Virus record (IMG/VR): IMGVR_UViG_3300044712_000429
Coordinates: 6,036 to 70,035 of that record
Source of the DNA: a virus
Length of the DNA: 64,000 nucleotides
Direction: 5' to 3' (one strand)
The notes beneath the pieces were generated by a model, which was not told where the DNA came from, ran no database searches, and saw only the letters and a program-made list of their open reading frames with translations. Both the position numbers and the translations under genes were made by a program. Numbering within the stretch: position 1 is the first letter of the stretch; each line of letters starts with the position of its first letter. Below are positions 11,019-62,968 of the stretch, piece after piece.

Positions 11019-11020
11019 TC

Positions 11021-12421: not shown

Positions 12422-12423
12422 TC

Positions 12424-23280: not shown

Positions 23281-24675
23281 ATGGCTACCTCAAAGAAGAA
23301 GATCGCTCTCGAAAACGCCAAGAACGCAGAGGACGTGTTCAAGGCTCGCGCCGCAGCCGACTCCGTGCGCGGCTCACAGGAAGCCGCAGCCGCTGCGAAA
23401 GCTGCTGCCGCCGCTGGAGCGGACGGAATCCCCGGCTCACTGCGTTCCTTCTTCAACAAGGTGCCTGTCGGTGCAGCCGCGAAGGAACTTGGTAAAGAGA
23501 TTGGCCTCGCCGGGGCGAAGGCACTACCTGTCGCAGGTAACGTGGTCTCTGGCGGTCTCGCTGCCAAGGGTGTCTATGACATGGTCACTGACCCTTCTCA
23601 GCGCACCCTTGGTCGTGCCGCAGAGACCGCGCTGGATGCTATCGGTGCAATCCCTGTCTTGGGTAACGCATCGAACGCTCTGCGCTTTGGCAGCAAGGCC
23701 GCTCAGGTGGGTGCAATCGCAGCCGGTGGCCTTCGCTCCGCACTGGGTACGGACGAAGCAATCCCTCCGGTATCTGTGAATCCTGCCGAGGTTGCCGCCC
23801 TGCGTGCAGAGCGCCCCGCACAAGCAGCCGCAGGAGCACAACCTGCCAGCCTTCAACCCGCCCCGGCTCCGACTCTTGAACAGAACATCGACGCTCGCGC
23901 CGGTCGCGTGGAAGACCTTCGTGGTGCCGTGTCGGACGCTCAGACCGCTTACGATAACTCGCGCCTACAGGGTGCAATCGATTCGTACGCGCAGCGGATT
24001 CCCGGCATGGCCGCGTTCGCCTTGGCGAGCCAAGGTATCCGCTCGGCACCGGAAGCAGCCACGTTGAAGAGCGCAACACGTGACTATGCAATGGCGCGCA
24101 GCGATGCAGCCCACGATGACAAGGTTGGTCTGGAACTGGGTACGCTTCGCTCTCAGCAATCCCTTGCCCAGGCGAAGATGCACCATGACATGCTGAACAA
24201 CACGGCAGATCGTGTGGGCAAGTTCGAGGCGCGTTCCACTGTCGGGCCTGATGGGAAGACGAACCCCGACGCTGCAGCGTTCAACTCTGACGTTCGCCGC
24301 ATTGCCTCCGACGACGCCGCGCTTGCCGGTGAGACTACCCCGACACTGGCGCTGGCGCGACTGCAAGGCGCTGTGGATGACACGAACGCCATGCGCAACT
24401 ACAACGACGTGGCATCGGTTAATCGCCGCATGAGTACAGCCCCGAAGGTGCTACCGGGTGCCGACACCGTAGGGTTCCGCGACGCGCTGCCGGGAGGCGC
24501 TGGACTGGGTGCAGCTATTCGCGCCAAGCTCACTCGCACCCCCAACGAGGTCTACACCGTTCGCACACCTGACGGACAAGAGCAACGCATCCTCTCCACC
24601 GATCTTTCCGGTGGTGACTCGACACTTCGCGCACGCTATGCGAAACAAGCAGGGCTGACACAAGGGAATCGTTAA
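23281..24675 (+). CDS. Putative ejection protein
   Basis: Ala-rich, between coiled-coil protein and giant protein. Confidence 0.6.
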   Translation: MATSKKKIALENAKNAEDVFKARAAADSVRGSQEAAAAAKAAAAAGADGIPGSLRSFFNKVPVGAAAKELGKEIGLAGAKALPVAGNVVSGGLAAKGVYDMVTDPSQRTLGRAAETALDAIGAIPVLGNASNALRFGSKAAQVGAIAAGGLRSALGTDEAIPPVSVNPAEVAALRAERPAQAAAGAQPASLQPAPAPTLEQNIDARAGRVEDLRGAVSDAQTAYDNSRLQGAIDSYAQRIPGMAAFALASQGIRSAPEAATLKSATRDYAMARSDAAHDDKVGLELGTLRSQQSLAQAKMHHDMLNNTADRVGKFEARSTVGPDGKTNPDAAAFNSDVRRIASDDAALAGETTPTLALARLQGAVDDTNAMRNYNDVASVNRRMSTAPKVLPGADTVGFRDALPGGAGLGAAIRAKLTRTPNEVYTVRTPDGQEQRILSTDLSGGDSTLRARYAKQAGLTQGNR

Positions 24676-27600
24676 TGGGACTCATACTCGACACTGCCCC
24701 TCTCGGTCTCCGCGCCGGAGCGTTCAGCGGGAACGGTAACGTCGCACCGCCCCCGCGTGGTGAGATCGAGAAAGGATTCAACCTCGGCGTAGGTGGCGTG
24801 GCTTCCGGCCTTCAAGGCTCTGTTGCCACGCTTCAAGACGCCCTCGGTTATCACGACGAGGCGCTGGCTCGCTACGCTGCTGCACGCCTTGAAGCTGAGC
24901 GCATGGCGCGTGAGAACCCGCTAGCCGTGCAGAACTTCACCGACATCAACAGCCTCGGTGACGCCGGGAACTGGGCAGCGGGTGCGCTCGGCCAAGCCGT
25001 GCCGTCCATCGCCACAGGTATTGGTGGTGCTGTCGCCGGTCGCCTGGGCCTCGGTGCCGCAGCGAAGTTCGCCAAGAATCGCGGCTCGGCTGCAGTGTCC
25101 CAAGCCCTGAGCAACCCGACACTGAACACCGCCGTAGGTGCTGGCCTCGGCATGCTTCCGCAAGAAATGGGTGAGAGCGCCATGAGCTTGTATGGCGACC
25201 CCACTGCAATGGCGAACACGACGCCCGTGGATCGCCTCGGCATCAACCTTGGAAAGGGGGTGGTCAATTCTGCGCTCGAATCCATCGTACCGGCCTACAC
25301 CATCGGCAAGGTGGTGAAGCCCGGTGTGATCAAGGGCGGCATGGGTGGCGCGGCGGCGCACGTGGGGAAGATTGCAGGCATAGACGCTGCTGGTGAGTTC
25401 CTGACTGAAGGCGCTCAGAACGTGGTGGGAGACCTTGCGCACGGGGTGGCGAACCCTGCGAACAAGGTGGACTGGAAGGAAGCCTTCAACGCCGGTATGG
25501 CAGGCGCTGTAGGTGGCGCGGCGATGGGTGGTGCCGGTGGTATCGCCGGTATCGCCAAGGACAAGCTCAGCAAGACTCCTGAGCCGAAAGTCACGAAGGC
25601 CGTGGACGACAACCGCAAGTGGACACAGCACTCGGAGCTTGACGGCCTCACCACGCCGCAGGAAGCCCCTCGGGGCTTGCGCAAGAACGGCACGGACGAC
25701 GAGCTGCTGGCGTGGCAGGGGCAAGACGACGTGGCGCGCACGCAGAAGGCCGTGAAACTCGCCAAGGACATGGTAAGCGATCCCGCTGCGCCGCAGGACG
25801 TGAAGCAAGCCTCGGCTGACTTCCTGACGGAAGCCGAGAACGGCAACGCCCAGGCATGGGCTGAGTACTCCGCTGCCTTGGGCCATCGCCGCGACATCGT
25901 GAAGACCACGGAGAAGGTGGAAGACTTCGCCTCGAAGGTGGGCGAGCTTCTGGCGAAGGGTGTCAAGAAGGTGGAAGGCACCAAGCAGAGCTTGATGCAG
26001 AACACCACGGCGAAGAACTACACCCCCACTGAAGCGGACTTGGACTTCGCACAGCGCCTGTTCTCGCGTGACAACATGCAGGGCTTGGACAAGAAGCTGG
26101 ATGACAAGTCAAAGGCAATGTTCGCCAAGTACCTGCGCGGTTACATCGAGAGCGGCTTCGGTGCGGAACATAATGACGGTGAGGTCGTAGTCCCCGACCA
26201 GCTCAGCGAGCTGCTTGGTGAACACACGGCAAAGGCGATCACCAACGCTGCTGACATCCTGCGCCGTGACCACGGCTTCAAGATGGACAAGACCTACGTT
26301 GAGCGTGTGAAGCAAGTGGCTGAAGTGGTCTCTGGTCACGCCACGGCGCGCAAGGCTGACAAGCAGATCATCAGTGACAACCTCACTTCCGAGGCGTACG
26401 ACACACTGCACGCTTCAAGGCTCGGTGACGTGGCGCAGATGGCGAAGGAGCAGGCGCTCGGCCTCGGTAAGCATACGGACAAGCTGAAGGCGCTCCTCGG
26501 CCCGAACACCGACGCGGTGTTGCAAGCGTTCCATGACAAGTACAAGCGCGAGTCTCCCGGTACGGTCGACCTTGGTCGCCAGCAAGTGGAGGATGACGAA
26601 GGTGTTGTTCACACAGGGCATGAAGGTGAATCCTCTGTGTCCGAGGACAAGGTCACTTATCACGGGCGCGATGCAAAGAAGGGTGGCCTCTATGACATGG
26701 AGAACCCCGAGCATCGTGACTGGCACGGCAAGAACCTTGCGGACATCGCCGCTCGCAAGGGTGCCACCACACGCTCCATCGGCGCTGCGGACTATCTGCT
26801 GAACAGTGGGATGAAACCAGAGCAGGCCCAGGCTGAACTTGAAAAGCTCCTCGGCGCACCTCTTCCGGCCTCGGCCAAGGAGCGCAAGCCTGTGCTGGAC
26901 GCACTGAACAAGCGTTACCGTGGCATTGAAGCGACGGTGCATGCCGGTGAAGAGGCTGACCCGCTGACCATCACACACGACGAGATGAAGTCCCTGCGCG
27001 ACGGTGGTGACAAGAAGAACCGTCACATCGGCTTGGGTCGCCTGACACTGGTGGCGAAGGACGGCAAGGAGTTCCACACGTCTTCGCAGCGCCTCATCCA
27101 GCTCATGGAGAAGAAGACGAACGCCGACATCAGCGCCACCGAACAAGGTGGTGTTGAAGCGAAGCGCCGTCAGTTCTCAGCAGCTCTGGCGTCGATCATG
27201 CAGAGCGAGAACTTCGATCACATTCGCTACACGGACAAGCAAGGTGTGACGCACGATCTTGCGAAGGGTGAGTCGTTGCCCAAGGACTTCGTGCTGTTCA
27301 ACTTTGGCCTGGGCAAGTCCGTCACCCTCGGTGAGGCTGAGCAAGGTCGCAGCGATGAGCAGCAAGCCAAGAAGGAAGCTGCCGACGAGCGCCGCCGTGT
27401 GTTGAAGGAGCGCAACAGCGAGCTGAACGGCTATCAAGTCACGCGCTATCCGAGCAAGGAAGCTGCTGCAAAGAAAGCTGCCGAGCTGTCCAAGGCGAAG
27501 GACAAGGACTACGTTCCTGTCCTTGGTGCCAACGGCAAGTGGCTCGTTGAGCAGCGCCGTGCCGCGAAGCGTGGCTACACGGACGGTGTGGACACGAATA

Positions 27601-30600
27601 ACCTTGCTGATTACACACGTGCTGAGCTGACGGAAGAGATTGGCAAGGCAACTGCCGGTATCGCCAACGCACAGAACGAAGGGCATCGCGCTGCGCTTGA
27701 GTCCCGCCTGGATAAGCTGAATGAAGAGCTGGCCCTGCGTCCCGATGACGAAGACAGCGGACCTCGGCGCGGTGACGCACAGATGTCTGCTGTGGTCACT
27801 GAGGACGCGGCAGTTGTGTCCGGTAAGAAGGCGTACGACGCAACGCTTGCCAAGCTCGCCGATGTGAACGAAAAGCTCCTGACGGTGAAGAACATCGTTG
27901 AGCGCAAGACACTGCGCGCTCTGCGCTCGGACTTGAACGCACAGCTTCGTCGCATGGAGTCCGAGAAGGAAGCGGGTTCAATCTCTGCGTCCGATACAGC
28001 GAATCAGCGCCGCCCCGACCTCGCCAAGCCGTTCGCTCAAGAGTTCGGCGATACGGCTGTGCAGAACGCCGCCTCTGGCAAGACGAACACGAACACCAAG
28101 TCTCCTTACGCAGGCAAGGCTACTCCGTCACTGGACGAAGGTGTTGTGTTCTCCGAAAACGCTGCTGAGCAGCAAGAATCCCAAGTCCATGTGCGCGACG
28201 AAGAGACCAAGCTCGACGTACAGGGTAAGCACAGCCGCAATCAACAGAGCGCCACTGAGCGCATCGGCACGCTGAAGGGGATCATCAGCACCACGGAGCA
28301 GCGCCTCGCCAAGGGTCGAGAGCTGCTGGCCAAGGCCGCACCCAAGAGCCGTGAGGCGATCATCGAAAACGGCAAGCGCCTCGCTGGTGTGCTGGCGAAG
28401 GCTCAGCGCGAGCTGGCCGAGGTGGAAGAGAACCTGAAGGTGCTCGACAAGAAACCAAGCGCCACGACAAACAGCGCAGAAGTCACCGTCACCCCTGAAG
28501 TAGAGGCGGCGATCCGCGAGTACGCGGAGCGGGTGCTAGGCCCGAAGTTCAAGGTCATCATCAAGGATATGGCCATCGCCGGTGAGTGGTCTCCCAAGGG
28601 TGCCATGCGTATTGCCACCACCGCCGTAGACCCCTACGGCGTGGCCCACCACGAGTCCATCCACGAGCTGTTCAAGCGCCTGCGCGATCACGGTGACGCA
28701 CGCACTCTCGAAGTGTTGAACAACCTGTCGACCAACAAGATCATCCGGCGCAAGCTCGAACAGCTTCTCGCCGGTCACCCCGAGGCAATCAAGCAGCTCT
28801 CTGATCCTGAAGAGTTCGCCGCGTACGTCTATCAGTTCCACGCAGCCGGTGTGCTTGAGCTAGGCCCGAAGGCCGAAGGTCTGTTCGCCAAGATCAAGAA
28901 CTTCATCAAGGGTGTGCTCGGTGTCCTGACGGAAGACCAGAAGGCCGAGCAAATCCTCATCGCCTTCAACCAGGGTGCGGCCAACGACATGAGCTTCTTC
29001 GGCCAAGCCATGAACGCCATGGACTCGATGAACGCGGAGTGGGGCAAGGTGACGACCAACCTGAGCGGCTACGTGGATAAGGCCAACGCCTTCCTCGGTT
29101 CCGTGGAAGGTCGCCTCGTCGGGAACAAGAACCCGCACCTCGACACCCTCGGTCGCCTGTTCGTGAACGTGGTCGGTGAGAAGGGTCAGCAAGGTCACCT
29201 TCAAGCCGTGCGCCAGAAGATCGACCAGATGGACTCCGGTCTCAAGCGTGCCATCGAGCGCGCCTACGGCCCCGACGAGGAGATAGACCCGAAGGATGTG
29301 GAGATGGCGATGGAGGCGATGCAGAAAGGCATCACAGCCCCTGACCGCATCGCTCGCAAGATTCAAGACGAGATACAGGGTCTCAAGCCGGGTGGCATGA
29401 CCAGCGACGGTCGCAAGTCCTTCTTCCTGCGCATGCACGAGTACCTGAAGGACTCTGGCGTATCCGTGTGGGACAACGAGAAGGACGCCTGGGTGCCGGT
29501 GAGCTACGTGGAGAACTACTTCCCGCGTGCATGGGACACGGAGAAGCTGGCATCAAACGGTGAGCAGTTCATCGCTTTGCTGCTGCAGCACCACACCAAG
29601 GACTTGCAGGGTATCGCCGACAAGGTGAATGCCGAGAGCAAGGCAGCGAAGCCGCTGACACCGGAGGACATCGCTCACGCGATCCTTCAGCGCCTGACCA
29701 CGAGCAATGGCCAGAACGACCTGGGCGAGACCAACTCGTCCATGGGCTTCGCGCCGTTCATGAAGGCGGTCAACAAGCGCACCCTGAACTTCATCGACAT
29801 GCGTGTGTTCGCCGAGTTCCAAGAGAAGGACTTCACCCATATCCTGTCCGGCTACATCCGTCAGGCTGTGAAGCGCGCCGAGTACGTGAAGCGTTTCGGC
29901 CTCGCCGGTGAGGTGGTAGAGAGCAACATGCGGCAGGCTCACGAGTGGGAACTCAACAAGGATGCTGACGGGATGGGTGTGAAAGACCTCGTCGGCAAGG
30001 CCAAGAGCGCATACCGCTTCGAGAGGGATGCGGCGATTAAGGCTGGCAAGAAGCCGCCAAGCGAGTGGCAAGACCTGATCCCGCGCATCATGAAGGACAA
30101 CGGGGTTGATGACCAAGGCGTGTCCGAGCTGACGAAGCGTGTGAACGAGCGCATGGTGAGCTATGCCAAGGCGATCTCTGCCATGGAAGGCACCCTCGGC
30201 GCTGACGCCTCTGACCTGACCAAGACTGTCAGCAGCTACATGATGGCCTACCAGAACTGGCGCAACCTCGGCTACGTCCTGTTTGCAAACATCATCGACC
30301 CCATGGGGACGATCATCAACGGCGGCGAAGTGAATGACGCCTTCGCCACACTGCGCGCCGGTCTCACAAGCATCGTCAAGGGCAAGGACTACAAGACCGA
30401 CGCGATCAAGCTGGCCGAGTACGTAGGCACCATCGACGCGAACCACTTCCACGGGATGCTCGGTGAGATGTACGGCTCACAGTTCACGGCCAAGGGTGCT
30501 GCATGGCTGAACGACAAGCTGTTCCAGTTCAACGGTATGGAAGCCTACAACCGTGGCGTCCGCGCCCAGGCGACGATGGTGGCGAAGAAGTTCATCGAGA

Positions 30601-31214
30601 AGCACGTCACCACACCGAACCAGCACAGCGCACGCTACATCGAAGAACTCTACGGTGAGAACGTCAAGGCCAGCGACATCAAGATGAAGGATGGCCAGCT
30701 CGACATCACCGATGACAAGAACCGCGTGGCCTTGATGCGGTGGGTTGACGGCGCCATCCTGCGCCCCACAGCCGCACAGCGCACCACATGGGGTAGCGAT
30801 CCGCTGTACCAGCTCTTCTTCCAGTTCAAGACCTTCACCTACGCCATGCACCGCGTGATCCTGCGCCGCGCCTACATCGAGGCTCAGCATGGGAACTACT
30901 CCCCGGCGCTGACGCTGGTGGCGGGTTACGTGCCGGTGATGATTGCTGCAGACCTGTTCAAGGGTCTGGTCACCAATCTAGGCGATGAGCCGGAGTGGAT
31001 GAAGGGTCTCGGCCCCGCAGGCGTGCTTAGCAACGGCGTACAGCGTGCGGGACTGGCAGGCATCTATCAGTTCGGCCTGGACGCCGCAGACAACCCCTTG
31101 AGGGCTGCTGGCCCCATGGTTGGGCAGATCGGTGACGCCTTCAAAGACCCGCTCGGCCTCACAGGGTTGAAGGCGCTACCGCTCAGCCCACAGGTGCGTG
31201 GGGCTGTCGACTGA
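24675..31214 (+). CDS. Large ejection/internal virion protein with zincin-like motif
   Basis: 2179 aa; Gly/Ala-rich N-terminal membrane-type region, HHESIH plus EEFAA, NYFPR.WD and FFQFKTF motifs typical of podovirus ejection proteins. Confidence 0.8.
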   Translation: MGLILDTAPLGLRAGAFSGNGNVAPPPRGEIEKGFNLGVGGVASGLQGSVATLQDALGYHDEALARYAAARLEAERMARENPLAVQNFTDINSLGDAGNWAAGALGQAVPSIATGIGGAVAGRLGLGAAAKFAKNRGSAAVSQALSNPTLNTAVGAGLGMLPQEMGESAMSLYGDPTAMANTTPVDRLGINLGKGVVNSALESIVPAYTIGKVVKPGVIKGGMGGAAAHVGKIAGIDAAGEFLTEGAQNVVGDLAHGVANPANKVDWKEAFNAGMAGAVGGAAMGGAGGIAGIAKDKLSKTPEPKVTKAVDDNRKWTQHSELDGLTTPQEAPRGLRKNGTDDELLAWQGQDDVARTQKAVKLAKDMVSDPAAPQDVKQASADFLTEAENGNAQAWAEYSAALGHRRDIVKTTEKVEDFASKVGELLAKGVKKVEGTKQSLMQNTTAKNYTPTEADLDFAQRLFSRDNMQGLDKKLDDKSKAMFAKYLRGYIESGFGAEHNDGEVVVPDQLSELLGEHTAKAITNAADILRRDHGFKMDKTYVERVKQVAEVVSGHATARKADKQIISDNLTSEAYDTLHASRLGDVAQMAKEQALGLGKHTDKLKALLGPNTDAVLQAFHDKYKRESPGTVDLGRQQVEDDEGVVHTGHEGESSVSEDKVTYHGRDAKKGGLYDMENPEHRDWHGKNLADIAARKGATTRSIGAADYLLNSGMKPEQAQAELEKLLGAPLPASAKERKPVLDALNKRYRGIEATVHAGEEADPLTITHDEMKSLRDGGDKKNRHIGLGRLTLVAKDGKEFHTSSQRLIQLMEKKTNADISATEQGGVEAKRRQFSAALASIMQSENFDHIRYTDKQGVTHDLAKGESLPKDFVLFNFGLGKSVTLGEAEQGRSDEQQAKKEAADERRRVLKERNSELNGYQVTRYPSKEAAAKKAAELSKAKDKDYVPVLGANGKWLVEQRRAAKRGYTDGVDTNNLADYTRAELTEEIGKATAGIANAQNEGHRAALESRLDKLNEELALRPDDEDSGPRRGDAQMSAVVTEDAAVVSGKKAYDATLAKLADVNEKLLTVKNIVERKTLRALRSDLNAQLRRMESEKEAGSISASDTANQRRPDLAKPFAQEFGDTAVQNAASGKTNTNTKSPYAGKATPSLDEGVVFSENAAEQQESQVHVRDEETKLDVQGKHSRNQQSATERIGTLKGIISTTEQRLAKGRELLAKAAPKSREAIIENGKRLAGVLAKAQRELAEVEENLKVLDKKPSATTNSAEVTVTPEVEAAIREYAERVLGPKFKVIIKDMAIAGEWSPKGAMRIATTAVDPYGVAHHESIHELFKRLRDHGDARTLEVLNNLSTNKIIRRKLEQLLAGHPEAIKQLSDPEEFAAYVYQFHAAGVLELGPKAEGLFAKIKNFIKGVLGVLTEDQKAEQILIAFNQGAANDMSFFGQAMNAMDSMNAEWGKVTTNLSGYVDKANAFLGSVEGRLVGNKNPHLDTLGRLFVNVVGEKGQQGHLQAVRQKIDQMDSGLKRAIERAYGPDEEIDPKDVEMAMEAMQKGITAPDRIARKIQDEIQGLKPGGMTSDGRKSFFLRMHEYLKDSGVSVWDNEKDAWVPVSYVENYFPRAWDTEKLASNGEQFIALLLQHHTKDLQGIADKVNAESKAAKPLTPEDIAHAILQRLTTSNGQNDLGETNSSMGFAPFMKAVNKRTLNFIDMRVFAEFQEKDFTHILSGYIRQAVKRAEYVKRFGLAGEVVESNMRQAHEWELNKDADGMGVKDLVGKAKSAYRFERDAAIKAGKKPPSEWQDLIPRIMKDNGVDDQGVSELTKRVNERMVSYAKAISAMEGTLGADASDLTKTVSSYMMAYQNWRNLGYVLFANIIDPMGTIINGGEVNDAFATLRAGLTSIVKGKDYKTDAIKLAEYVGTIDANHFHGMLGEMYGSQFTAKGAAWLNDKLFQFNGMEAYNRGVRAQATMVAKKFIEKHVTTPNQHSARYIEELYGENVKASDIKMKDGQLDITDDKNRVALMRWVDGAILRPTAAQRTTWGSDPLYQLFFQFKTFTYAMHRVILRRAYIEAQHGNYSPALTLVAGYVPVMIAADLFKGLVTNLGDEPEWMKGLGPAGVLSNGVQRAGLAGIYQFGLDAADNPLRAAGPMVGQIGDAFKDPLGLTGLKALPLSPQVRGAVD

Positions 31215-31355
31215 TCACTTCTTATCCCTCATCGTCGCCAACAGGATCAAGGCGGCGATGAGGAATACCCACCAAGGGATTCCAGAGACACTCCCCGAGG
31301 GCATGAAGACGGCAAAAGCGGAGGGTGAAAACAGGAGAAATGGGAGGGCACGCAT
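31215..31355 (-). CDS. 46-aa membrane peptide, not in ORF track
   Basis: MRALPFLLFSPSAFAVFMPSGSVSGIPWWVFLIAALILLATMRDKK; stop abuts the stop of the convergent gene. Confidence 0.5.
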   Translation of the reverse strand: MRALPFLLFSPSAFAVFMPSGSVSGIPWWVFLIAALILLATMRDKK

Positions 31356-31423
31356 GTTAGTGTCCACTAACCTTGGGCCTTCACTCTACCTGAAAATCTC
31401 ATGCCATTGTCCTCAAAACAGGC

Positions 31424-31731
31424 AAAGTTCGGAACTTTTGAGGCAAAGTTCCGATCTTCGGAACCGCTTAACACGTTGAAACAGTTGGGGAAAGCAGCAA
31501 AAAGTTCCAAAGTTCCGAAGTTTAGGGTCAGTCGTTACAGAAAAAGGAAAGTTGATTTTCGGATGGACCCAACTATGTGTTCTCTATATAGAGTTGGGTC
31601 GAAATTTCGGAACTTTGGAACTTTTATTGCCTTTCCCCCTGTGTAGTCAATGAGTTACCCGGTTCCGAAGTTCGTAACCAGGGTTCCGAAGTTTCGCAAG
31701 CCCTTGTTCCTGTGGTTAAAATTTCGGAACC
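31424..31731. repeat. Palindromic GTTCCGAA iteron-like element A (origin-like)
   Basis: Arms AAAGTTCCAAAGTTCCGAAGTTT 31501-31523 and AAATTTCGGAACTTTGGAACTTTT 31602-31625 around hairpin GACCCAACT 31566/AGTTGGGTC 31592; more GTTCCGAA/TTCGGAAC copies outside. Confidence 0.85.
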
Positions 31732-31895: not shown

Positions 31896-31943
31896 GGATT
31901 GTGATTCCGGCTGTCGTGGGTTCGAGTCCCATCAGCCACCCCA
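31896..31943 (+). mobile_element. Putative attP core: 3' part of tRNA-His(GTG)
   Basis: GGATTGTGATTCCGGCTGTCGTGGGTTCGAGTCCCATCAGCCACCCCA = anticodon loop, T arm, acceptor 3' strand and CCA; no D arm or 5' acceptor strand upstream. Confidence 0.85.
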
Positions 31944-32224
31944 GTAAACGCAAGGGTTCCAGGGTAGGTAGCATGACAAATGCACCCTAATACTTTTGGC
32001 TCTTTCACTCTCTTTCGATCGTTTTTGCTGGAAGTCTGACGCGGGTATTAGGGACTGCTCTGGCAGACTGAGGGGCTGCTCGCTACCCTCGCAGGCAAGA
32101 AAATAGGTCGGCTCGAATACAGCCCTTTAGAGCCGCTGAAAGTCTGTCGGAGGCAGCGCCACAGCCGCACCCCTGTGGATAACTCCGTGGCGGGGCCGTG
32201 GAACAGCCGTGAAACACTATTTCG

Positions 32225-35212: not shown

Positions 35213-36102
35213 GACATGTCCTTCGGATCGCGCCAACCAAGGAACACTGGATGACGCGGTGCATCCTTCATCCCGACCGGGAAGTACTTAACCTTGGCAA
35301 TTTTGCCGAGATGAGAATCTCGACGCGACCAGATCGCAGCGCGCTCATCATCTGTGAATCCTGTGCCAACGCTAAAGTCAGCTCCGGTGGGATTACGAAG
35401 AACCAAGGCTCCGAGGTCTCCGCGTCCTGTCTTGCCAGCTTGGTGAGAGCTTCGCTTAGTGCGGCCAAGCTCATTGGTGGTTGCGACGTTTCCATTGTGC
35501 ATGCGCTCCTCGAAGCCGATGACTTCGTACTCAGCATCCACGAAGCGTTTCAGCTTCAGGAGATACCCTTCCTTGACGGTGCTGCGACCCCGCTTGTAGG
35601 GTGCATTCGGGTCACGCAGGATCAGACCTTCGTAGCCCTGGTTGAGCAGCTTCTCTTCGAGTTCGAGCAGCGTGTCGAGACAGCCAATGTGATATTGGTC
35701 GTGGCGACGAAGGATGGGGTTGGCACCCCACTTGCCGTAGAACTCGTTGGTGATGGCGAGGTTGCGCTTCAGATACGGCGCGCTCAGATCGCGCACGTGA
35801 TCGAACACGTAGAAGCGGAGGTCGTAGTTCACCTTGTCCTGGGACATGACGTGGCTGACCGTATCGCGGTAGACGGTCTTGCTTGTCGGCTCACCGACGA
35901 TCAACTCACCGTCAAGGTGTTCGAAGGTATCGAGCAGGTTCTGCACGAAGACGTTCGGTATCGGCTTGTTGGAGCGGCTGTACACCGTCCCGCCGCGCAC
36001 TACGGCGCGCACGCCGTCGAGCTTGGCGCTGGCCAGCAGCGGGAAGCGGAGCTTGTCGAGTTCCGCGTCGGTGGCGAGCATGCACTTGAAGAGGTCAGAC
36101 AT
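35209..36102 (-). CDS. ATP-dependent DNA ligase
   Basis: Motifs KLDGVR, LDGEL, FYVFD, EGLILR, LLKLK; OB domain VGTGF, PRHPVF. Confidence 0.95.
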   Translation of the reverse strand: MSDLFKCMLATDAELDKLRFPLLASAKLDGVRAVVRGGTVYSRSNKPIPNVFVQNLLDTFEHLDGELIVGEPTSKTVYRDTVSHVMSQDKVNYDLRFYVFDHVRDLSAPYLKRNLAITNEFYGKWGANPILRRHDQYHIGCLDTLLELEEKLLNQGYEGLILRDPNAPYKRGRSTVKEGYLLKLKRFVDAEYEVIGFEERMHNGNVATTNELGRTKRSSHQAGKTGRGDLGALVLRNPTGADFSVGTGFTDDERAAIWSRRDSHLGKIAKVKYFPVGMKDAPRHPVFLGWRDPKDMS

Positions 36103-36445
36103 GAAGAAAATCCTTTATGCGTTGTCTTGATGCTGCGCCGAAGTCGCGCAACAAACCTTCTGGATCGTCAATAACGATTAGTTGCTTGGCAAATTTGTCA
36201 GCCCAAATCTCCGCTTGCATACGACCCGATCTGCCGGGGCGCATGCTGCCGGGACGAATGATTCGGCCTTGCTTCTCCAAGTTGTAATAACGAGCAGTGA
36301 TGGAGGAGTACGCCAAATGGGGATGACGAGCACGAATTTCGTCGCTGATGCAGCCGAGCAAACCAAAGCTCATTACTGTTTCATAAACGAGATTCTCTAA
36401 AGCTGTTGTATCAATCGAATCTCTGGCGAGATAAGAAGTGATCAT
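36095..36445 (-). CDS. Winged-HTH-like protein
   Basis: G...DEI......YSSITAR...L...G.I...G..R.GRSGR...IW. Confidence 0.55.
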   Translation of the reverse strand: MITSYLARDSIDTTALENLVYETVMSFGLLGCISDEIRARHPHLAYSSITARYYNLEKQGRIIRPGSMRPGRSGRMQAEIWADKFAKQLIVIDDPEGLLRDFGAASRQRIKDFLHV

Positions 36446-36783
36446 TTGGACAACTCGTTGTGAGCGGTGAAGTGAACCCCACCGGGCAAGTCCGCTTCCT
36501 TGACGAAGATGCCGTCCACGATGCGACCCTTGCGATCCTTGATCGTGTTCCATGCTTCCTCGATGCACTCTTCGATGGTCAGGCCGCACTGAGCGGAGAG
36601 CATCACCAGGACGACCACCGTGTCACCGATGCCATCCATGATCAGCTCGGGCTTGCCCTTGGCGAGACCCTCGGCCAGCTCGCCGACCTCTTCCATCAGC
36701 TTCACGAACTGCTTCTCGGGGCGCGTGCCTTGGATGATGTTGCGATCCATGCCCCACTTACGGATATCGTCAAATCTGCTCAT
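36442..36783 (-). CDS. MazG-like NTP pyrophosphohydrolase
   Basis: KLMEEVGELA...DGIGD..VVL; AWN.IKDRKG..VDG.FVKE. Confidence 0.9.
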   Translation of the reverse strand: MSRFDDIRKWGMDRNIIQGTRPEKQFVKLMEEVGELAEGLAKGKPELIMDGIGDTVVVLVMLSAQCGLTIEECIEEAWNTIKDRKGRIVDGIFVKEADLPGGVHFTAHNELSK

Positions 36784-36973
36784 TTTTGTGAATCACCTTG
36801 TAGATGCACGGACGGCCATTGCGCTGTTCGTGCTGGTTGAGAATCTGTGCGGCGTCGTTGGCGGCGAGCATGGAACCCGCGCTTTCAACGATCTGCTTGC
36901 GTATCGGGTTCACGATCAGGAACTGATCAGAGGGATGAACGGCGCTCGGGTTCAGAGGCGGGAGGTACTTCAC
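36770..36973 (-). CDS. Hypothetical protein
   Basis: GTG start coupled to upstream stop, GAGG RBS. Confidence 0.5.
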   Translation of the reverse strand: MKYLPPLNPSAVHPSDQFLIVNPIRKQIVESAGSMLAANDAAQILNQHEQRNGRPCIYKVIHKNEQI

Positions 36974-37320
36974 GCTGAGCACCTCATGCCTTGAGTGAAG
37001 AAGCGCATCACCAACTCCTTGATCTTTTCGTGGGCCTGAGTAACCGAAGGCCACGTACCGGCAATGAGCTGCTCCCCGAACCACCTGCCGAACGGGGCGC
37101 TGACCTCGTAGTCGAAGACGCCGGGGTAGTCGAACTCCAGGTCGACGAATCGTTGCGCGTGGGTGGTAATGAACTCGGCGTATTTCGAGATGTCCTCGAC
37201 GGTCTCGCACCAGCCTTCGCACTTGGCGGCGGCAGCGGCAATCACTTTGTCGTATCCGCTATCGTGCAAACCTTCGCAGATGAACATGGCGGTGCAGGGG
37301 ATTCGAATGTCGATACTCAT
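36970..37320 (-). CDS. Hypothetical protein
   Basis: ATGA-coupled ORF. Confidence 0.6.
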   Translation of the reverse strand: MSIDIRIPCTAMFICEGLHDSGYDKVIAAAAAKCEGWCETVEDISKYAEFITTHAQRFVDLEFDYPGVFDYEVSAPFGRWFGEQLIAGTWPSVTQAHEKIKELVMRFFTQGMRCSA

Positions 37321-37994
37321 TTCGCAAGCCTTATGTCGATGACTTTCTTCTTGCTGCCGTGTGCGGGGAATCCGATCACGGCCCGTTCCTTTGATGCGTC
37401 GTGGCAGATGCCACAGTTCCAGCACATCACGTCGTCCCGGTAGGTCGCGGGGCAGACGATGACCTTGCGACCACCGGCTGTGTAGAGCGTCTTCTCCGTA
37501 GTGGTAGAGGGCAGCACCACGGCCTGGGGCAAGTCCGTGATGTCTGTCACTCTATCAGACACCGTCAGAGAGTCGCACGAAACGTTGACGGTAAATCCCG
37601 CCGCCGTCGCTGCTTCCATCATGGACAGGTTCTCCACGGTCAGCGGGTAGTGCGTGTAGGTGAAGCCTCGTTTGCCCATATTCGCTTGCACGAGCTGATA
37701 GAAAGCATCAGAGTCGAGTTTACGTCCGTCCCCAGGCAGATCGCCTGCTTGGTTGTGCCGCCACAACTGGCGACCGGGCAGGCGACGGATTTGATCACAG
37801 AACTCAGGCCAGTCCACCCCACGGTCACCGCGCTCAACAGCACGCCAATGCATAACCATAGGGCCAAACTTTGCATAGCACGTATCGTACTGTGCGCAGT
37901 CCGGAGGACAGGTACTGGGTTCGGTGGTGCTGACAGGGATTGGCCCGGTCTTAGCATTACTGCTTGACCGCGACAGGTGTGCTCGATACGACAT
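37317..37994 (-). CDS. Cys-rich conserved phage protein (DUF7227/gp88-like)
   Basis: S.N.KTGPIPVS....TCP..C....CYA; RHNQAGD; GFTYTH; CPA......C..C..C; GFPAHG. Confidence 0.65.
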   Translation of the reverse strand: MSYRAHLSRSSSNAKTGPIPVSTTEPSTCPPDCAQYDTCYAKFGPMVMHWRAVERGDRGVDWPEFCDQIRRLPGRQLWRHNQAGDLPGDGRKLDSDAFYQLVQANMGKRGFTYTHYPLTVENLSMMEAATAAGFTVNVSCDSLTVSDRVTDITDLPQAVVLPSTTTEKTLYTAGGRKVIVCPATYRDDVMCWNCGICHDASKERAVIGFPAHGSKKKVIDIRLAK

Positions 37995-38682
37995 TGTTCT
38001 TCTCTTCGAAAAGTGCGTAGGTGCGGGGGAACAGGCTCTGGATGATGTTCGCCACTTCATGGGCGTACTCGCGGATTTCCCATTGCGCTGCAGGGTGGTC
38101 GCGCAGCGTCAGGAAGCCGAGCCAGTTGCGAAGGTTCGCTGAGGCACGCATGCGGGAGTAGCGAGCCACCGGCACCGGCAGACGCGCCAGTTCCTTGGGG
38201 ATGCCAGCGGCGATGCCTTGTTCATAGACCCTTTGTGCATGGATATACAGGTCGTCAAGGGATTCCAGCCACCTTGCTGCTGTCGCGGGGGTCAATGAAG
38301 CACCCGTGCCTTGTGCCTGCTTGTTAGCTGAATGAAGATTGGCAAACAGGCGATCACCTGAAGGCATGTAGTTCTCATCCGGCAGCGGGATGTAGCGTGC
38401 GCTCATCTCGTTGTAGGACTGGGTGCGGTGACGGTGCCACTCGCGGAACACGAAGATCGGTGCCTTGACCTCGATGATCAGACCGGCCATCTCGAACGGT
38501 GTCGAGTGGTTGTTCATGTACAGGTGGCGCAGCAGACCGGCGTCACCCTTGGGGTGGCCTTCATACGGCTCCCAACTGATGAAGCCCTTGTCGACGGACA
38601 TGCGCGCCGCTTCGATGATGCGTTCGTCGCTGCCCCAGTGTTCAACGAGGTCAACGTAGCCGTGATCCAGAATCTTTGTCAT
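37957..38682 (-). CDS. thyX: FAD-dependent thymidylate synthase
   Basis: H.TPFE, RHRTQSYNEMSARY signature, E.AR..., NLRNW..FL.LR....AQWEIR. Confidence 0.96.
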   Translation of the reverse strand: MTKILDHGYVDLVEHWGSDERIIEAARMSVDKGFISWEPYEGHPKGDAGLLRHLYMNNHSTPFEMAGLIIEVKAPIFVFREWHRHRTQSYNEMSARYIPLPDENYMPSGDRLFANLHSANKQAQGTGASLTPATAARWLESLDDLYIHAQRVYEQGIAAGIPKELARLPVPVARYSRMRASANLRNWLGFLTLRDHPAAQWEIREYAHEVANIIQSLFPRTYALFEEKNNVVSSTPVAVKQ

Positions 38683-38683
38683 G

Positions 38684-38848
38684 TCAGTAGGGCTTTCGCG
38701 GAGAGACTTCGGCCACCATCTTGTGGTTCCCCATGGCAAGGGGTTCCAACGGCTTGAGCGAGATGGTCACGATGAGATCGAGCGACTCGGCGTACTTGAT
38801 GAGTTGCTCGGCTTTTTCTTCGATGAGTTCGACTTCCTTGGATTTCAT
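38684..38848 (-). CDS. 54-aa hypothetical protein, not in ORF track
   Basis: MKSKEVELIEEKAEQ..., GAGGAG RBS. Confidence 0.55.
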   Translation of the reverse strand: MKSKEVELIEEKAEQLIKYAESLDLIVTISLKPLEPLAMGNHKMVAEVSPRKPY

Positions 38849-39123
38849 GTGTACTCCTCTATGGGATAGGTTCTCGGGCCGCTGATGTTTCCCGCAGCAG
38901 CGTTTGCTCCTTTCTTGGAAGGTGCGCCCGAGAATGAGGTGGGTGGAAAGAGTTCGGACAGGTCGCCGGAGCGCGCTTGCATCTTTGCGAAAAAGCCGCG
39001 TGCACGCTGTTCGTCATCGAACCGTGCAAAGGACAGGTTGCCTTCCCGAGGAACAACCAGCACATTCCATTGCTTTGGATGCGCGAGCTTCCCGGGTGGT
39101 CTACCCAAATGCCAGGTGGTCAT
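38845..39123 (-). CDS. Hypothetical protein
   Basis: Coupled ORF; N-terminus resembles 41574..41771. Confidence 0.6.
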   Translation of the reverse strand: MTTWHLGRPPGKLAHPKQWNVLVVPREGNLSFARFDDEQRARGFFAKMQARSGDLSELFPPTSFSGAPSKKGANAAAGNISGPRTYPIEEYT

Positions 39124-39593
39124 AGGTAGTACTCATCGCCGTCGAATTTCACTTCGCCGCGAGACCACAGGAGCTTCAGGTGTTCCTTGAACTTATGGAA
39201 GTCCTTGTACTCGGTGGTTCTGTCACCCGCCTTCAGTTCGTTCAGCAGGTATTCACGGGTGGCGCCACCGATCTTGCCGATGGCTGGTTCCCCTGGCGAA
39301 ATGTTGGGGCGGGGAGCGCCTGTGACCCCTTCGTTGTCACCCGACTGTTCAGCACCCTTGGCGCTGCTCCCCGTTGAAGTGGTGCGGGTGGTGGGGTGCG
39401 AAGAGTGCCTCGCCTCATCGTTATCCACCTTTTTGCCGGAATCCGTATTAGCTCCGGTCTCACGCCCCGCATTCAGTCTGGTGGACGATTCCACATCGTC
39501 CACCCATGTCTTTGGACGTGTCAGCCGGTTGATCGCATCCTTCGCGTCCTCTGGTGTGTCGCACGTCACTTGGATTGTGATTCGCATGCTCAT
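39120..39593 (-). CDS. Hypothetical protein
   Basis: ATGA-coupled ORF. Confidence 0.6.
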   Translation of the reverse strand: MSMRITIQVTCDTPEDAKDAINRLTRPKTWVDDVESSTRLNAGRETGANTDSGKKVDNDEARHSSHPTTRTTSTGSSAKGAEQSGDNEGVTGAPRPNISPGEPAIGKIGGATREYLLNELKAGDRTTEYKDFHKFKEHLKLLWSRGEVKFDGDEYYL

Positions 39594-39835
39594 TTTTCGA
39601 GTCCTTCCATACGGAAGCGAAGTTCGTCAAGCTCTCGGGTCAGCTTGTCGATTCGATCCCACGGCATTTCATCTTCGCCCAGGCCGTCGCGTACTGGCGG
39701 CAACATGTCGTCGCGGTAGTTTCCAGCCAGCCACATATCGACAAGCTCGATGCCTCGGCTTACGGTCAGTTCCCCGGCTTGCATGGCACGGAGCATTTCG
39801 CGGAGTTCACATCCGTCTCTGTCTTTCACAGCCAT
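39590..39835 (-). CDS. Hypothetical protein
   Basis: Start reassigned to MAVKDRDG. Confidence 0.55.
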   Translation of the reverse strand: MAVKDRDGCELREMLRAMQAGELTVSRGIELVDMWLAGNYRDDMLPPVRDGLGEDEMPWDRIDKLTRELDELRFRMEGLEK

Positions 39836-40269
39836 GTCACATCCACTCCGCATTCGTTGAAGAGCTTGAGAGATCGCCCGGTATGTTCTTTCCAACGCTC
39901 AGCGAACTCGTCCGAAGGGCGAGGGCAATACACCTCGACTATCCCCGCTTGAACAATCGCACGAGCGCAGTCCATGCACGGGAAGTGGGTGACGATGATT
40001 GCGCTTCCGAGCAGAGGAGTACCCACCCTCGCGGCGTTCGTAATGGCGTTGAGTTCAGCATGGGAGAACCAGAAGTACTTCTCCGGTCGTTCTCTGCCGC
40101 GAGAATCTTCATCAGCCGCGCAACCGCGAGGCGCTCCGTTGTAGCCGAGGGAGCGGACTTCCTGCGACGGGCCGAGGATGACCGCGCCAACCTGCGTGCT
40201 TTCATCCTTGCTGAACTTTGCGGCTGCACGGGCAATCTCCAGATACTTGAGGGCTTTGATGGGGGTCAT
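39826..40269 (-). CDS. dCMP deaminase
   Basis: SKD.STQVGAVI, GYNG.PRG, HAELNAI, PCMDCARAI zinc motifs. Confidence 0.95.
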   Translation of the reverse strand: MTPIKALKYLEIARAAAKFSKDESTQVGAVILGPSQEVRSLGYNGAPRGCAADEDSRGRERPEKYFWFSHAELNAITNAARVGTPLLGSAIIVTHFPCMDCARAIVQAGIVEVYCPRPSDEFAERWKEHTGRSLKLFNECGVDVTWL

Positions 40270-40457
40270 TTCGTCATCTTCTCGAATTGTTTTTCGGTGA
40301 TTTCCTTACCTTGCCCATCGACGATGCAGACATCGAATGTGCTGAACAAAGCACCTTGGGATTCCAGATCAACAACACGGTCGATGTTGTGCTGATAGGT
40401 CTGGTCATCGTCTGTTTCAACGTCGTACACTTTGATGATGCGGACGTAGGTGGTCAT
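40266..40457 (-). CDS. Hypothetical protein
   Basis: Coupled ORF. Confidence 0.55.
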   Translation of the reverse strand: MTTYVRIIKVYDVETDDDQTYQHNIDRVVDLESQGALFSTFDVCIVDGQGKEITEKQFEKMTK

Positions 40458-40648
40458 GATTGCGCGACGTAGCCGACGAGGTTGTACAGATCAGCCCAGG
40501 ACTTGCCACACGTGTGACATGTGACTTCTTGATGGGCGCTGCCGCCGTCGATCTCCACACTGCCGCCGTGAATGTGTTCGGAATCGCAGAAGGGACAATG
40601 GGTGCCTTTGTGCGAGAGATACTCGCCGTCGCTCATGGGTAGGTTCAT
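40454..40648 (-). CDS. Small zinc-ribbon protein
   Basis: CPFC...CHTCGKSW. Confidence 0.6.
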   Translation of the reverse strand: MNLPMSDGEYLSHKGTHCPFCDSEHIHGGSVEIDGGSAHQEVTCHTCGKSWADLYNLVGYVAQS

Positions 40649-40887
40649 GCTGTCACCTTCGCCGCCATCAGCGCGTGCTCGGAATCGAGCATCACGTTGC
40701 CCAGGTGGTCGTCCCACCTGTAGTTCACCGGCTCGTCGGACTCGATGACGCAGAAGTCTTCGGGCATCGTCCAGACACGGAAACGTTGCTCGGCTGACTT
40801 GTGGGCTTCGTCGTACGTGGCGAAGGCTTGGCTGTTGGTCGAGGGTTCAGCCTGACCTTTGAACTTGAATGCCGGTTTGAAGCTCAT
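40645..40887 (-). CDS. Hypothetical protein
   Basis: MSFKP...N...FAT..EA...V.ES.EPVNYRW; GGAG RBS. Confidence 0.65.
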   Translation of the reverse strand: MSFKPAFKFKGQAEPSTNSQAFATYDEAHKSAEQRFRVWTMPEDFCVIESDEPVNYRWDDHLGNVMLDSEHALMAAKVTA

Positions 40888-41399
40888 GTTTGTTTCTCCA
40901 ATGAAGCGATGTATCTGGAACCCGCCCGGTACTGGTAACCGTTGATGGTAATCAGCCAACTGGAGGGGCTGCGGCGTTTCACGATCTTGATTTCTTGCCC
41001 TTCACGATCCACATACCTTGTACCGGCGACGGCTGCACGCAGACGCGCATGTCGTGCATACACGCGCTGGCGCCATTCATAGGCGTAGGTGTTCTCAGGC
41101 GCTGTGCACATCATCAGGTAGGACTCAGGACAGGAGAGCTGGTATGGCCCTGCTGTCTCATGTACATCCTTGTAGCCCCACCAGTCCTTGTCACTCCCGG
41201 TGTAACCCTTACCTGCGTTGTGTGGCCCTCGCATCATGACGAGGCAAATGGAACGCTTGCCGTCTTCATGCTCCATGACCATCCACAGGTTGTTGCCGAC
41301 GCAGCAGTGCTTGATGATCTTCGCCCCACCCTTGTTCTCGACGAGGTGTGCGATCAAGTCCTTGCGTTCGAGCCATCGTGAAGAAAAGAGCCAGCCCAT
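40884..41399 (-). CDS. DUF6927-like protein
   Basis: MGW start; WGYKD..E..GP....CP..........A.EWR. Confidence 0.65.
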   Translation of the reverse strand: MGWLFSSRWLERKDLIAHLVENKGGAKIIKHCCVGNNLWMVMEHEDGKRSICLVMMRGPHNAGKGYTGSDKDWWGYKDVHETAGPYQLSCPESYLMMCTAPENTYAYEWRQRVYARHARLRAAVAGTRYVDREGQEIKIVKRRSPSSWLITINGYQYRAGSRYIASLEKQT

Positions 41400-41572
41400 T
41401 ATTTCCTCCGTGATTCCAAAAGATCAGGTCGATCTGCACGACGCGTCACCATGCAACCGTGTAGAGGTGAGTACGTAGTGCGCTCTTTCCTTTCCTGTTC
41501 CTGTTGCGCCCACGACCCTTTCCACGAACTGATTGGGCGCTGCTTGCCGTTCACCACTGGGCCGTAACCCAT
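41399..41572 (-). CDS. 57-aa hypothetical protein, not in ORF track
   Basis: AAGGAG RBS, TAATG overlap with next gene. Confidence 0.5.
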   Translation of the reverse strand: MGYGPVVNGKQRPISSWKGSWAQQEQERKERTTYSPLHGCMVTRRADRPDLLESRRK

Positions 41573-41573
41573 T

Positions 41574-41771
41574 TCAATCTCCTTGAGGACGCAGTAGATA
41601 CATGTGTTTGTCGTGGCTGCGAGACTTCATCCTGTCCATATAGGCTTCGGCTGTGTGTGGCGTATCAAAGCGCATCACTGTCGTGAGCATTCTTGGAGGA
41701 TCGTTCACGACAGTCCATTTGGTTTTGTGCCACAACGGAACAGGGTTCTGTTCTTGATGCCACGTAGCCAT
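41574..41771 (-). CDS. Hypothetical protein
   Basis: AAGGAG RBS. Confidence 0.65.
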   Translation of the reverse strand: MATWHQEQNPVPLWHKTKWTVVNDPPRMLTTVMRFDTPHTAEAYMDRMKSRSHDKHMYLLRPQGD

Positions 41772-41941
41772 TTGAATCTCCTTGTTGGTGCCTGCTACAA
41801 CCCACCACGTTGGCGCGTGTAGGGAGCAGGGCTAACCGAGTACGCTGGTTTCTCGCGGTTGGATCGCGTCAGTTAAGTTTTTGGAGGCAACCGACGTTCC
41901 AACTGCCGAGGTTTAGTTCCCACTCTCGGCTTGGGGTTCAG

Positions 41942-42457: not shown

Positions 42458-42466
42458 CTCGTTCTC

Positions 42467-62892: not shown

Positions 62893-62968
62893 GTGATGGT
62901 TGCTCCCGGGGTTGTGCATCAAGTCTAACAGAGAGCGTCAGAGCGTGAATTAGAAGATTAGCCGATGC

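Follow-up and report, generated by a model that had tools for sequence, protein, structure and literature searches.

Two distant copies of an origin-type iteron module in a 70-kb phage genome and its relatives, probably read by the phage primase-helicase

Two homologous non-coding elements, here called A and B, lie 32.4 kb apart in the phage genome of IMG/VR record IMGVR_UViG_3300044712_000429, which was analysed in a window of 64,000 nucleotides (bases 6036–70035 of the record; positions given below are those of the window unless contig bases are named). Each element carries short repeats (iterons) facing inward around an AT-rich core, and A and B are probably, in our moderately confident assessment, paired copies of an origin-type iteron module read by a phage protein, the likeliest candidate being the 818-aa primase-helicase encoded in the same genome. 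A preliminary description of this stretch had proposed a dual or bipartite origin for the primase-helicase. That proposal is still the best-supported reading, on account of the conserved position of the elements, their concerted evolution, their origin-type build and a layout resembling that of phage P4, with the binder and the firing of A as the parts that we infer.

Element A (31424–31731, assigned to neither strand) begins 210 bp past the stop codon of the gene for a 2179-aa virion protein and is an imperfect palindrome of iterons of about 300 bp. Its arms pair 31430–31479 with 31647–31696 (50 nt, 72% complementary) and 31487–31523 with 31602–31638 (37 nt, 84%), around a centre near 31562. 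On the left side, the outer iterons comprise a TCGGAAC (31429–31435, minus strand) and a dyad of GTTCCGA (31448–31454, plus strand) and TCGGAAC (31458–31464, minus strand), followed by an IHF-like site with one mismatch to WATCAANNNNTTR (31469–31481, minus strand) and by two inner tandem iterons, GTTCCAA and GTTCCGA, which have an 8-bp period and face the core (31504–31518, plus strand). The core (31519–31606) has about 40% GC, compared with 58% for the genome, and contains a purine tract (31537–31551) and a hairpin (31566–31600), whose 9-bp stem is formed by GACCCAACT (31566–31574) and AGTTGGGTC (31592–31600) around the palindrome CTCTATATAGAG (31582–31593). On the right side, the inner tandem iterons (31607–31621, minus strand) mirror those of 31504–31518, with 92 bp between the GTTCC cores; a second IHF-like site (31645–31657, plus strand), also one mismatch away from WATCAANNNNTTR, mirrors that of 31469–31481, and outer iterons lie at 31662–31668 and 31683–31689 (plus strand) and at 31724–31730 (minus strand).

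Element B reaches the end of the window and continues past it. The record has 70,035 bp, and its first and last 127 bp are identical, which indicates a circular assembly of 69,908 bp; the window end coincides with the contig end, and the sequence can therefore be followed into the first contig bases. B extends from about 63690 to beyond the window end and opens with two iteron dyads (GTTCCGAAGTTTGGAAC twice, 63694–63731), to which the outer right iteron pair of A is 91% identical over 35 bp. An outer left iteron (63834–63840, minus strand) and a dyad (63854–63860, plus strand, and 63864–63870, minus strand) occupy 63834–63870, and the exact IHF consensus WATCAANNNNTTR follows at 63875–63887 (minus strand), one of only two exact matches in the window, for which 0.56 would be expected. 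Two inner tandem GTTCCGA iterons with an 8-bp period (63910–63924, plus strand) precede a core of about 38% GC (63925–64000), which extends six bases past the window end. There, the sequence continues as ...GAGTTGG|GAAATTTCGGAACCGCG, the mirror octamer region reads GAGTTGG GAAATTTCGGAAC CGCG, and a single mirror iteron TCGGAAC is found at contig bases 134–140, 86 bp from the inner GTTCC.

All the parts that the preliminary description had listed for A and B were found where it had placed them. The mirror arm that it had predicted past position 64000 is there in the form of one octamer; the GTC and the second octamer of the prediction are absent; its limits for B (63831–64000) enclose the parts listed and leave out the two dyads at 63694–63731. 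B lies upstream of the primase-helicase operon, as had been said, but not at the very start of the leftward arm.

The repeat is strongly concentrated in the two elements. The octamer GTTCCGAAGTT, with at most one mismatch, has 17 matches in the window, compared with 1.0 expected, and none of 100 shuffles reached 17; nine of the matches lie in A (31425–31730), six in B (63694–63928) and two elsewhere. Likewise, 19 of the 32 occurrences of the 7-mer GTTCC[AG]A in the window (its complement being counted as well) are within A or B. When the genome is searched against itself with BLAST, A and B align over 129 bp (73.6% identity, E 2e-10), over 126 bp (73.0%, E 2.5e-9) and, in inverted orientation, over 83 bp (78.3%, E 6e-11), so that the homology claimed earlier is confirmed at 73–78% over 83–129 bp, and the claimed offsets (32,400 and 32,406 bp) hold. 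The two copies divide the circle into 46% and 54%, so their placement is not strictly antipodal, a point that had been raised for checking.

Both copies share one architecture, in which inward tandem iterons surround a core of about 80–85 bp with 38–40% GC (genome 58%), which opens with a purine tract. An IHF-type site stands between the inner and the outer iterons on each side, exact in B and one base off at both sites of A. This build is that of the origin of staphylococcal pathogenicity islands (SaPIs), in which an AT-rich core has at least two opposed iterons per side: A shows it with an 82-bp core, and B has two iterons on one side and one on the other. In single-strand folding of the DNA, A reaches a z of -6.4 and B folds weakly (z -2.5 and -1.0), indicating that the hairpin of A is not a requirement shared by the two copies. 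In addition, the dyads of A retain their DNA word but form only degenerate hairpins, which argues that no RNA structure is being preserved. A scan of the elements against Rfam gave no family reaching the threshold, the matches being chance ones to long-hairpin models. Two open reading frames (ORFs) that overlap A (31198–31479 and 31401–31646) were considered and taken as non-coding, given that tblastn searches against the relatives G001–G003 gave no match.

The pair is conserved in related genomes. With the primase-helicase alone as a query, no close relative was found in viral contigs, and an alignment of its matches was needed; this alignment recovered 80 viral loci, from which 18 near-complete relatives were taken in full, making 19 genomes together with the present one (G000). 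At least 12 of these 19 genomes, including Pseudomonas phage KPP25, have the pair, with its copies at corresponding places, in agreement with the conservation that the preliminary description had asked to be examined. In ten of them (G000 included), self-BLAST finds exactly one distant non-coding homologous pair, of 43–200 bp and 25–43 kb apart, and words shared at both expected places add G017 and G018. At least one element is present in G004, G014 and G016, and neither self-BLAST nor shared words revealed an element in G005, G011, G013 and G015.

The positions of the two copies follow a simple rule. The A-type copy lies 90–730 bp past the gene for the giant virion protein in nine of the ten pairs (in KPP25, one more structural gene follows the copy), and in G007 it lies two genes earlier than that position. 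The other copy is always found between the small terminase and the primase-helicase genes; its distance from the start of the primase-helicase gene is 66–170 bp in G008, G009, G010 and G012, 770 bp in the present genome and 12 kb in KPP25. The A copy never adjoins the primase-helicase gene. A first pattern scan of metagenomes gave no match, and a looser one returned at least 122 stretches, of which only L240 and L244 have homologous genes among the 80 loci read. In these two metagenome contigs, which have the GTTCCRA word, the element of L240 lies just upstream of a homologue of the primase-helicase gene and that of L244 lies 55 bp after a homologue of the giant virion-protein gene.

The spacing of the inner inward-facing GTTCC words is also maintained. 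Besides the 92 bp of A and the 86 bp of B in the present genome, it is 83 bp in the B copy of G001, 86 bp in the A copy of G002, and 83, 85, 85 and 83 bp in L024, L240, L244 and L207, respectively; L060 (74 bp) and L035 (102–113 bp) are outliers. The elements of the relatives have the same SaPI-type build as A and B.

The iteron word changes from genome to genome: it is GTTCCGA in G000, GTTCC(G/A)AT in G001, GTTCCAA in G002, GGTACA in G003, GTTACG/GTCACG in KPP25, CTAGCA in G007 and GTAAGA in G008. The word is nevertheless identical in both copies of any one genome. Among the 20 elements of the ten pairs, the two copies are each other's best match in eight of ten genomes, with scores of 64–156 compared with 29–59 for the best match across genomes; the exceptions are G008 and G009, which are close kin. 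Judging from these sequences, the two copies of each genome evolve in concert. Their relative orientation, taken from the longest match, is direct in five genomes (the present one among them) and inverted in the other five, so that their function would be independent of orientation.

The same conservation is seen at a shorter distance in the genus Kochitakasuvirus, to which the nearest cultured relatives belong (the Pseudomonas podoviruses KPP25 and phiR18, with 36% identity in the primase-helicase). In four cultured Kochitakasuviruses, both non-coding gaps are 96.7–99.1% conserved, and they are unannotated in all six records; in the B-type gap, the 91 iteron columns hold one of the 39 variable columns, where 5.2 would be expected. 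No description of the elements was found in the literature on KPP25 and on two-origin phages, a coverage that did not extend to the original KPP25 paper (Virus Res 2014), and the phrase 'origin of replication' is absent from the text of PMC13340246. As a separate observation on these records, bases 1–426 and 63688–64113 of the KPP25 record (G006) are a duplication of 426 bp (99.8% identical) within the gene for the giant structural protein, whose annotation runs across the start of the record; the duplication is probably an assembly overlap.

Several traits typical of replication origins gather in the elements. The ten genomes with self-BLAST pairs have 19 exact IHF sites in all. Ten of these fall within the elements, where 0.2 would be expected from the elements' share of the bases (1.06%); the lower GC content of the elements accounts for only part of this excess. 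In seven of the ten genomes, the two elements are the two lowest-GC 80-bp windows of the whole genome. The window has a sole perfect DnaA box (TTATCCACA, 32174–32182, minus strand), 440 bp from A, whose extended context CCTGTGGATAACT is that of the box clusters of L007. Across the 19 genomes, four of the ten perfect DnaA boxes, this one included, lie within 450 bp of an element. Moreover, L006, L007, L011 and L084, which are the nearest relatives by primase-helicase (45–47% identity), each have three or four perfect DnaA boxes clustered at most 250 bp from the B-type module, which in each of them lies between the small terminase and the primase-helicase genes.

These traits bear on a rival explanation, according to which the elements would control transcription and have no part in starting replication, either as arrays of operators bound by a phage transcription factor or as insulators at the arm borders. 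The elements do stand at the borders of the transcription arms, the dyads of B followed by a T-run obtain a terminator-like score on the minus strand, and the binder of the elements is something that we infer. Palindromes of the form TGCCT-N7-AGGCA also occur beside the elements of relatives (G001 10738–11260, L085, all four of its palindromes; G003 12324–12423, L093, two of its three; none in the present genome), and they may be operators of another protein. However, promoter scans found no convincing promoter in A or B, and neither promoter nor terminator scans gave anything convincing in A, whereas a promoter-like triple repeat is present elsewhere, at contig 1809–1930. No DNA-binding family appears among the ORFs beside B, and what the dyads of A keep is the DNA word, not the hairpin. 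As origin traits, the clusters of DnaA boxes, the IHF sites and the AT-rich gap with its fixed length of about 85 bp fit an origin better than operators or insulators, which we consider unlikely.

The genome's lowest-GC stretch (63647–63689) lies between B and the leftward operon's first ORF and holds four 11-bp repeats ATTGATCAAAA, a possible unwinding element; two of the four contain GATC, and the repeats are unique to the present genome among ten compared. On the other side, B is separated from the small terminase gene by a few ORFs on the minus strand, by three promoter-like repeats and by a terminator. The promoter-like repeats, upstream of the small terminase gene, consist of a 46-bp unit present 2.7 times (contig L001, 1809–1930), each with a minus-strand promoter-like site (TTGTCA, 18 nt, AAAAAT), and look like a triple early promoter; transcripts from them would head toward B and meet a strong terminator at contig 476–453.

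The vicinity of the small terminase gene raises a further alternative, namely that the small terminase reads the elements as packaging sites. The pac site of phage P1 has repeats on both sides of its cleavage region and an IHF site between them, and flanking repeats, a central region and an IHF site such as those of A and B would suit a layout of this type. The B-type copy lies 0.95–2.2 kb from the small terminase gene in G000–G003, L006, L007, L011 and L084, and headful packaging has been predicted for Kochitakasuvirus from its large terminase, according to PMC13119210. Against this, two copies 25–43 kb apart are not expected for one packaging series, and in G004, G008, G009, G010 and G012 the B-type copy abuts the start of the primase-helicase gene, 2.4–4.5 kb away from the small terminase gene. 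In four relatives, the module has DnaA-box clusters beside it, and the likeness of the elements follows the small terminase no more closely than it follows other proteins (rho 0.21). A packaging role is accordingly rated as distinctly unlikely.

The two elements lie at the two junctions of opposed gene arms. The plus-strand arm (contig 2.0 kb to window 31214) encodes the small and large terminases, the portal and the major head protein and ends with the giant 2179-aa virion protein (24675–31214, plus strand). The minus-strand arm (window 32.0–63.65 kb) encodes a ligase, ThyX, a dCMP deaminase, the integrase, an excisionase, a DNA polymerase, a helicase, a PD-(D/E)XK nuclease and the 818-aa primase-helicase. 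Within it, a run of genes for nucleotide metabolism and modification (36442–44653, minus strand) encodes a MazG-like protein, a DUF7227 protein, ThyX, the dCMP deaminase, a DUF932 protein and an Nmad5 domain protein, a hint of modified bases in the phage DNA.

The preliminary description had named evidence of misassembly among the findings that would refute its reading. In an independent assembly (Logan contigs of run X1, possibly the sample from which the record derives), element A is spanned with zero differences, and the replication arm plus B stands on a single 33.8-kb contig; neither copy is therefore misassembled. The contigs of this run break only at a fragment of a tRNA-His gene, where the depth is 432, compared with about 20. 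The mean depth is 18.7 for the structural-arm contig and 23.4 for the contig with the replication arm and B; as contig means, these values allow no gradient to be read.

The tRNA-His fragment (31896–31943, plus strand) is the 3' part of the gene and the probable core of attP; it is 90–94% identical to tRNA-His genes and phage sites and lies 165 bp from the last iteron of A, and no whole tRNA gene was found. The earlier statement that A lies about 165 bp from the attP core holds as a distance to this fragment, its status as the core is probable, and the integrase gene (44650–45621) is 12.7 kb away from it. This neighbourhood invites the explanation that the elements are recombination sites, either arm-type sites of the integrase or sites at which a recombinase would split the genome into circles of 32.4 and 37.5 kb with one origin each. 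The proximity of A to the fragment, a similar neighbourhood in G003, the direct orientation of the copies in the present genome and a layout with IHF sites that resembles attP all speak for it. However, there is no tRNA fragment or core beside B, the fragment adjoins the A copy in only 2 of the 19 genomes (G000 and G003), and tblastn found no homologue of this integrase in G002 and G003, which keep both elements. In G003, the fragment even stands beside the A-type element in the absence of such a homologue. On sequence grounds, integrase arm sites are excluded as a general explanation. As for resolution into two circles, an orientation that is direct in five genomes and inverted in five is unfit for a fixed deletion or resolution, and no A/B hybrid joint was found in the contigs of run X1, a weak piece of evidence because contigs drop rare forms. 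Apparent joints in these contigs were rejected, being cross-matches of B on A or having sides shorter than 30 letters. The idea that the structural and replication halves behave as separable units, which the preliminary description had offered, finds no support here, and recombination sites in general are very improbable.

Another proposal of that description, an origin at the prophage edge that replicates into host DNA, is possible for the present genome and G003 only, where the tRNA-His fragment is present. A search of bacterial genome contigs gave 17 loci, of which 16 are on contigs of metagenome-assembled genomes; not one of the 17 is a clear case of an integrated prophage closely related to this phage.

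The candidate reader of the iterons is the primase-helicase (60466–62922, minus strand; 818 aa), which was found in all 19 genomes. Its N-terminal part is primase-like, its SF3 helicase core resembles that of NrS-1, and the domain at its C-terminus is conserved. Residues ~400–690 match the helicase domain of the NrS-1 primase-polymerase (E 1e-40), and the N-terminus gives leads to archaeo-eukaryotic-type primases only. The last 110 residues hold the conserved motif RDEL..IF.Y.VG..P.SPNKFTSLLKHH. A structural model of the C-terminal 200 residues has a predicted local distance difference test score (pLDDT) of 91.3 and ends with a strand (106–110), two helices (111–122 and 129–138) and two strands (144–148 and 151–159), a predicted strand-helix-helix-strand-strand succession that is the element order of a winged helix. 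Atlas leads for this domain were DUF3874 and Pox_D5, and profile searches of PDB and Pfam with it found NrS-1 only. From the build of the protein and from precedent, it is most likely that the primase-helicase reads the iterons via the conserved domain that follows its SF3 core.

A link between iteron class and protein sequence was looked for in the relatives. At matched core identity, the identity of the candidate winged-helix region is 0.42 in pairs of the same iteron class and 0.36 in pairs of different classes (12 vs 109 pairs), and 0.60 and 0.48 for 2 vs 18 pairs, the pairs being non-independent. The rank correlation between element likeness and protein identity is 0.09–0.28 for nine proteins or parts of proteins, with the C-terminal domain represented by 7 genomes only. 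By eye, the wing sequences sort by iteron class, and these classes may simply be clades. Among features of the same gene region in relatives, G003 has at ~36000–36600 (L094) a 15-nt unit repeated about 40 times (…GATTGGCACCGCGCA…) in an ORF between the primase-helicase and terminase genes, which looks like a gene for a pentapeptide-repeat protein. Outside the family, the viral contigs L002 and L003 (~960–1060) hold three tandem AGTTCCNA units between short-period repeats of GGCA(C/T)C and GCCACTT; they share no protein with this phage, and the 8-bp word may serve other replicons.

According to the mechanism proposed here, one phage protein would recognise the same iteron word at both copies. 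Following the model for the SaPI Rep protein, the initiator would load on both flanks, melt the core and prime synthesis, and IHF would bend the DNA beside the iterons. B would fire, and its forks would run along with transcription on both arms and meet near A. Because forks from B would be co-directional with transcription on both arms, B is likelier than A to be the main origin. A could then serve as a second or late origin, act in cis as a partner of B (the role of crr toward the ori of P4) or stall forks (as proposed for oriR of SPP1). A more speculative extension, to which we give a small but real chance, is that a single initiator defines where replication starts and where it ends: B would fire, and the initiator sitting at the mirror-symmetric A would trap or break forks, setting the switch to concatemers or pairing A with B to fold the two arms. 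If this were true, a 70-kb phage chromosome would have as its 'ori' and 'ter' two copies of one module, between which concerted evolution maintains the likeness.

A number of observations weigh against an origin pair read by the primase-helicase. Seven of the 19 genomes show no clear pair by self-BLAST and shared words, the second copy of G007 lies 10 kb inside the structural arm, and the layout of G016 differs. In the present genome, B has just one mirror iteron and no perfect DnaA box, and it is separated from the primase-helicase gene by 770 bp with three small ORFs, a distance that grows to 12 kb in KPP25. The GC skew is weak, and the AT skew turns at the strand switches and not at B in the genomes where these differ (G008, G009 and G010); both skews track transcription and supply no replication signal, so the GC-skew check suggested earlier is uninformative on replication. 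Forks from A would run head-on to transcription, which argues against A as the main origin. Concerning the reader, a Foldseek search with the modelled C-terminal domain gave no match at E <= 0.001, the best being NrS-1 (E 0.04), with winged-helix binders and plasmid initiators at E 0.1–0.9; a wide structural search likewise placed the NrS-1 tail at Z 6.9 and nothing else above Z 5. The comparison of a profile of the C-terminal 200 residues with the C-terminus of P4 alpha suggests no homology (probability 0.8%), and the links between iteron class and protein appear weak for every protein tried.

The concerted evolution of two dispersed copies with one word, together with their free orientation, would also be expected of centromere-like or genome-organising sites, where a partition or condensing protein pairs the copies and has no role in initiation. 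No gene of the ParA, ParB or SMC type was found in PHROG and Pfam scans of the submitted ORFs, and such a role would not account for the AT-rich core or the DnaA boxes. Phages of the KPP25 type have been described as lytic (PMC4859162 and PMC13119210), and a lytic phage has little use for partition. Of the explanations considered, this one is the least probable.

With A and B, a widespread family of 62–72-kb phages gains its first concrete origin candidates that can be tested; the Pseudomonas aeruginosa therapy candidates KPP25, phiR18, CRPAP1904 and YMC17/07/R4900a belong to this family. The location of the copies at the arm junctions and the joint change of their word make the family a natural system for studying the co-evolution of an initiator and its sites. 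It is also suited to asking what a second origin-like site does (a second origin, an enhancer or a fork trap), a question shared with crr of P4 and oriR of SPP1. In practical terms, the elements mark where engineered phage genomes should not be cut.

Among known systems, the layout recalls that of P4 (GenBank NC_001609), in which an ori with 8-bp repeats precedes the alpha operon and the opposite end of the operon holds the 'cis required region' crr, at a distance of 194 bp from the attP core. As in P4, the present replicon has two separated clusters of one 8-bp repeat, in both orientations, with one cluster upstream of the primase-helicase operon and the other at the far end near the attP core (165 bp away here), and the candidate initiator combines a primase, an SF3 helicase and a further C-terminal domain. 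In contrast, the clusters of P4 are 4.5 kb apart, compared with 32.4 kb here and 25–43 kb in the relatives, and the order is A, attP and the arm here and attP, crr and alpha in P4. The primase of P4 alpha is of the DnaG type according to PMC2777425, whereas the N-terminus of the present protein leads to the archaeo-eukaryotic type. Apart from the class of SF3 helicase, no likeness of the candidate initiator to alpha was detected; the system may therefore act like P4 outside the family of P4. The same source argues for a design of prim/pol, SF3 helicase and winged helix in both ORF904 of pRN1 and P4 alpha.

A second comparison is offered by SPP1, whose oriL and oriR are similar in build; in PMC6316719 and PMC3485210, gp38 bound at oriR is proposed to stall a fork and to trigger the switch to concatemer synthesis. 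As in SPP1, the present genome has two far-apart sites with repeats and an AT-rich unwinding region, one among the replication genes and the other in the late region. SPP1 differs in that origin binding is the task of a separate protein, used together with a helicase loader and a helicase of the DnaB type, and in that oriL lies inside gene 38; the candidate here would be a primase-helicase that loads itself, and neither site is coding. The PHROG and Pfam scans mentioned above, which did not include a search with gp38, gp39 and gp40, named no loader and no helicase of the DnaB type. In addition, the copies described here stand at the two junctions of opposed arms, while SPP1 is transcribed one way.

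The architecture of a single copy is closest in kind to the SaPI origin, which, according to PMC9371898, has an AT-rich centre and at least two opposed iterons per side, read by the terminal winged helix of a self-loading helicase that is thought to be loaded as two hexamers. As described there, SaPIs have one origin directly after rep, while the present phage has two copies, upstream of the gene or far from it; IHF sites are found here and DnaA boxes in some relatives, and the iterons are of 7–8 bp instead of 5–6 bp. Regarding the protein, the only solved relative is the NrS-1 primase-polymerase-helicase (PDB 6k9c), with which the C-terminal 160 residues align at Z 6.9 and a root-mean-square deviation of 5.5 over 136 residues, with an identity of 10–14%.

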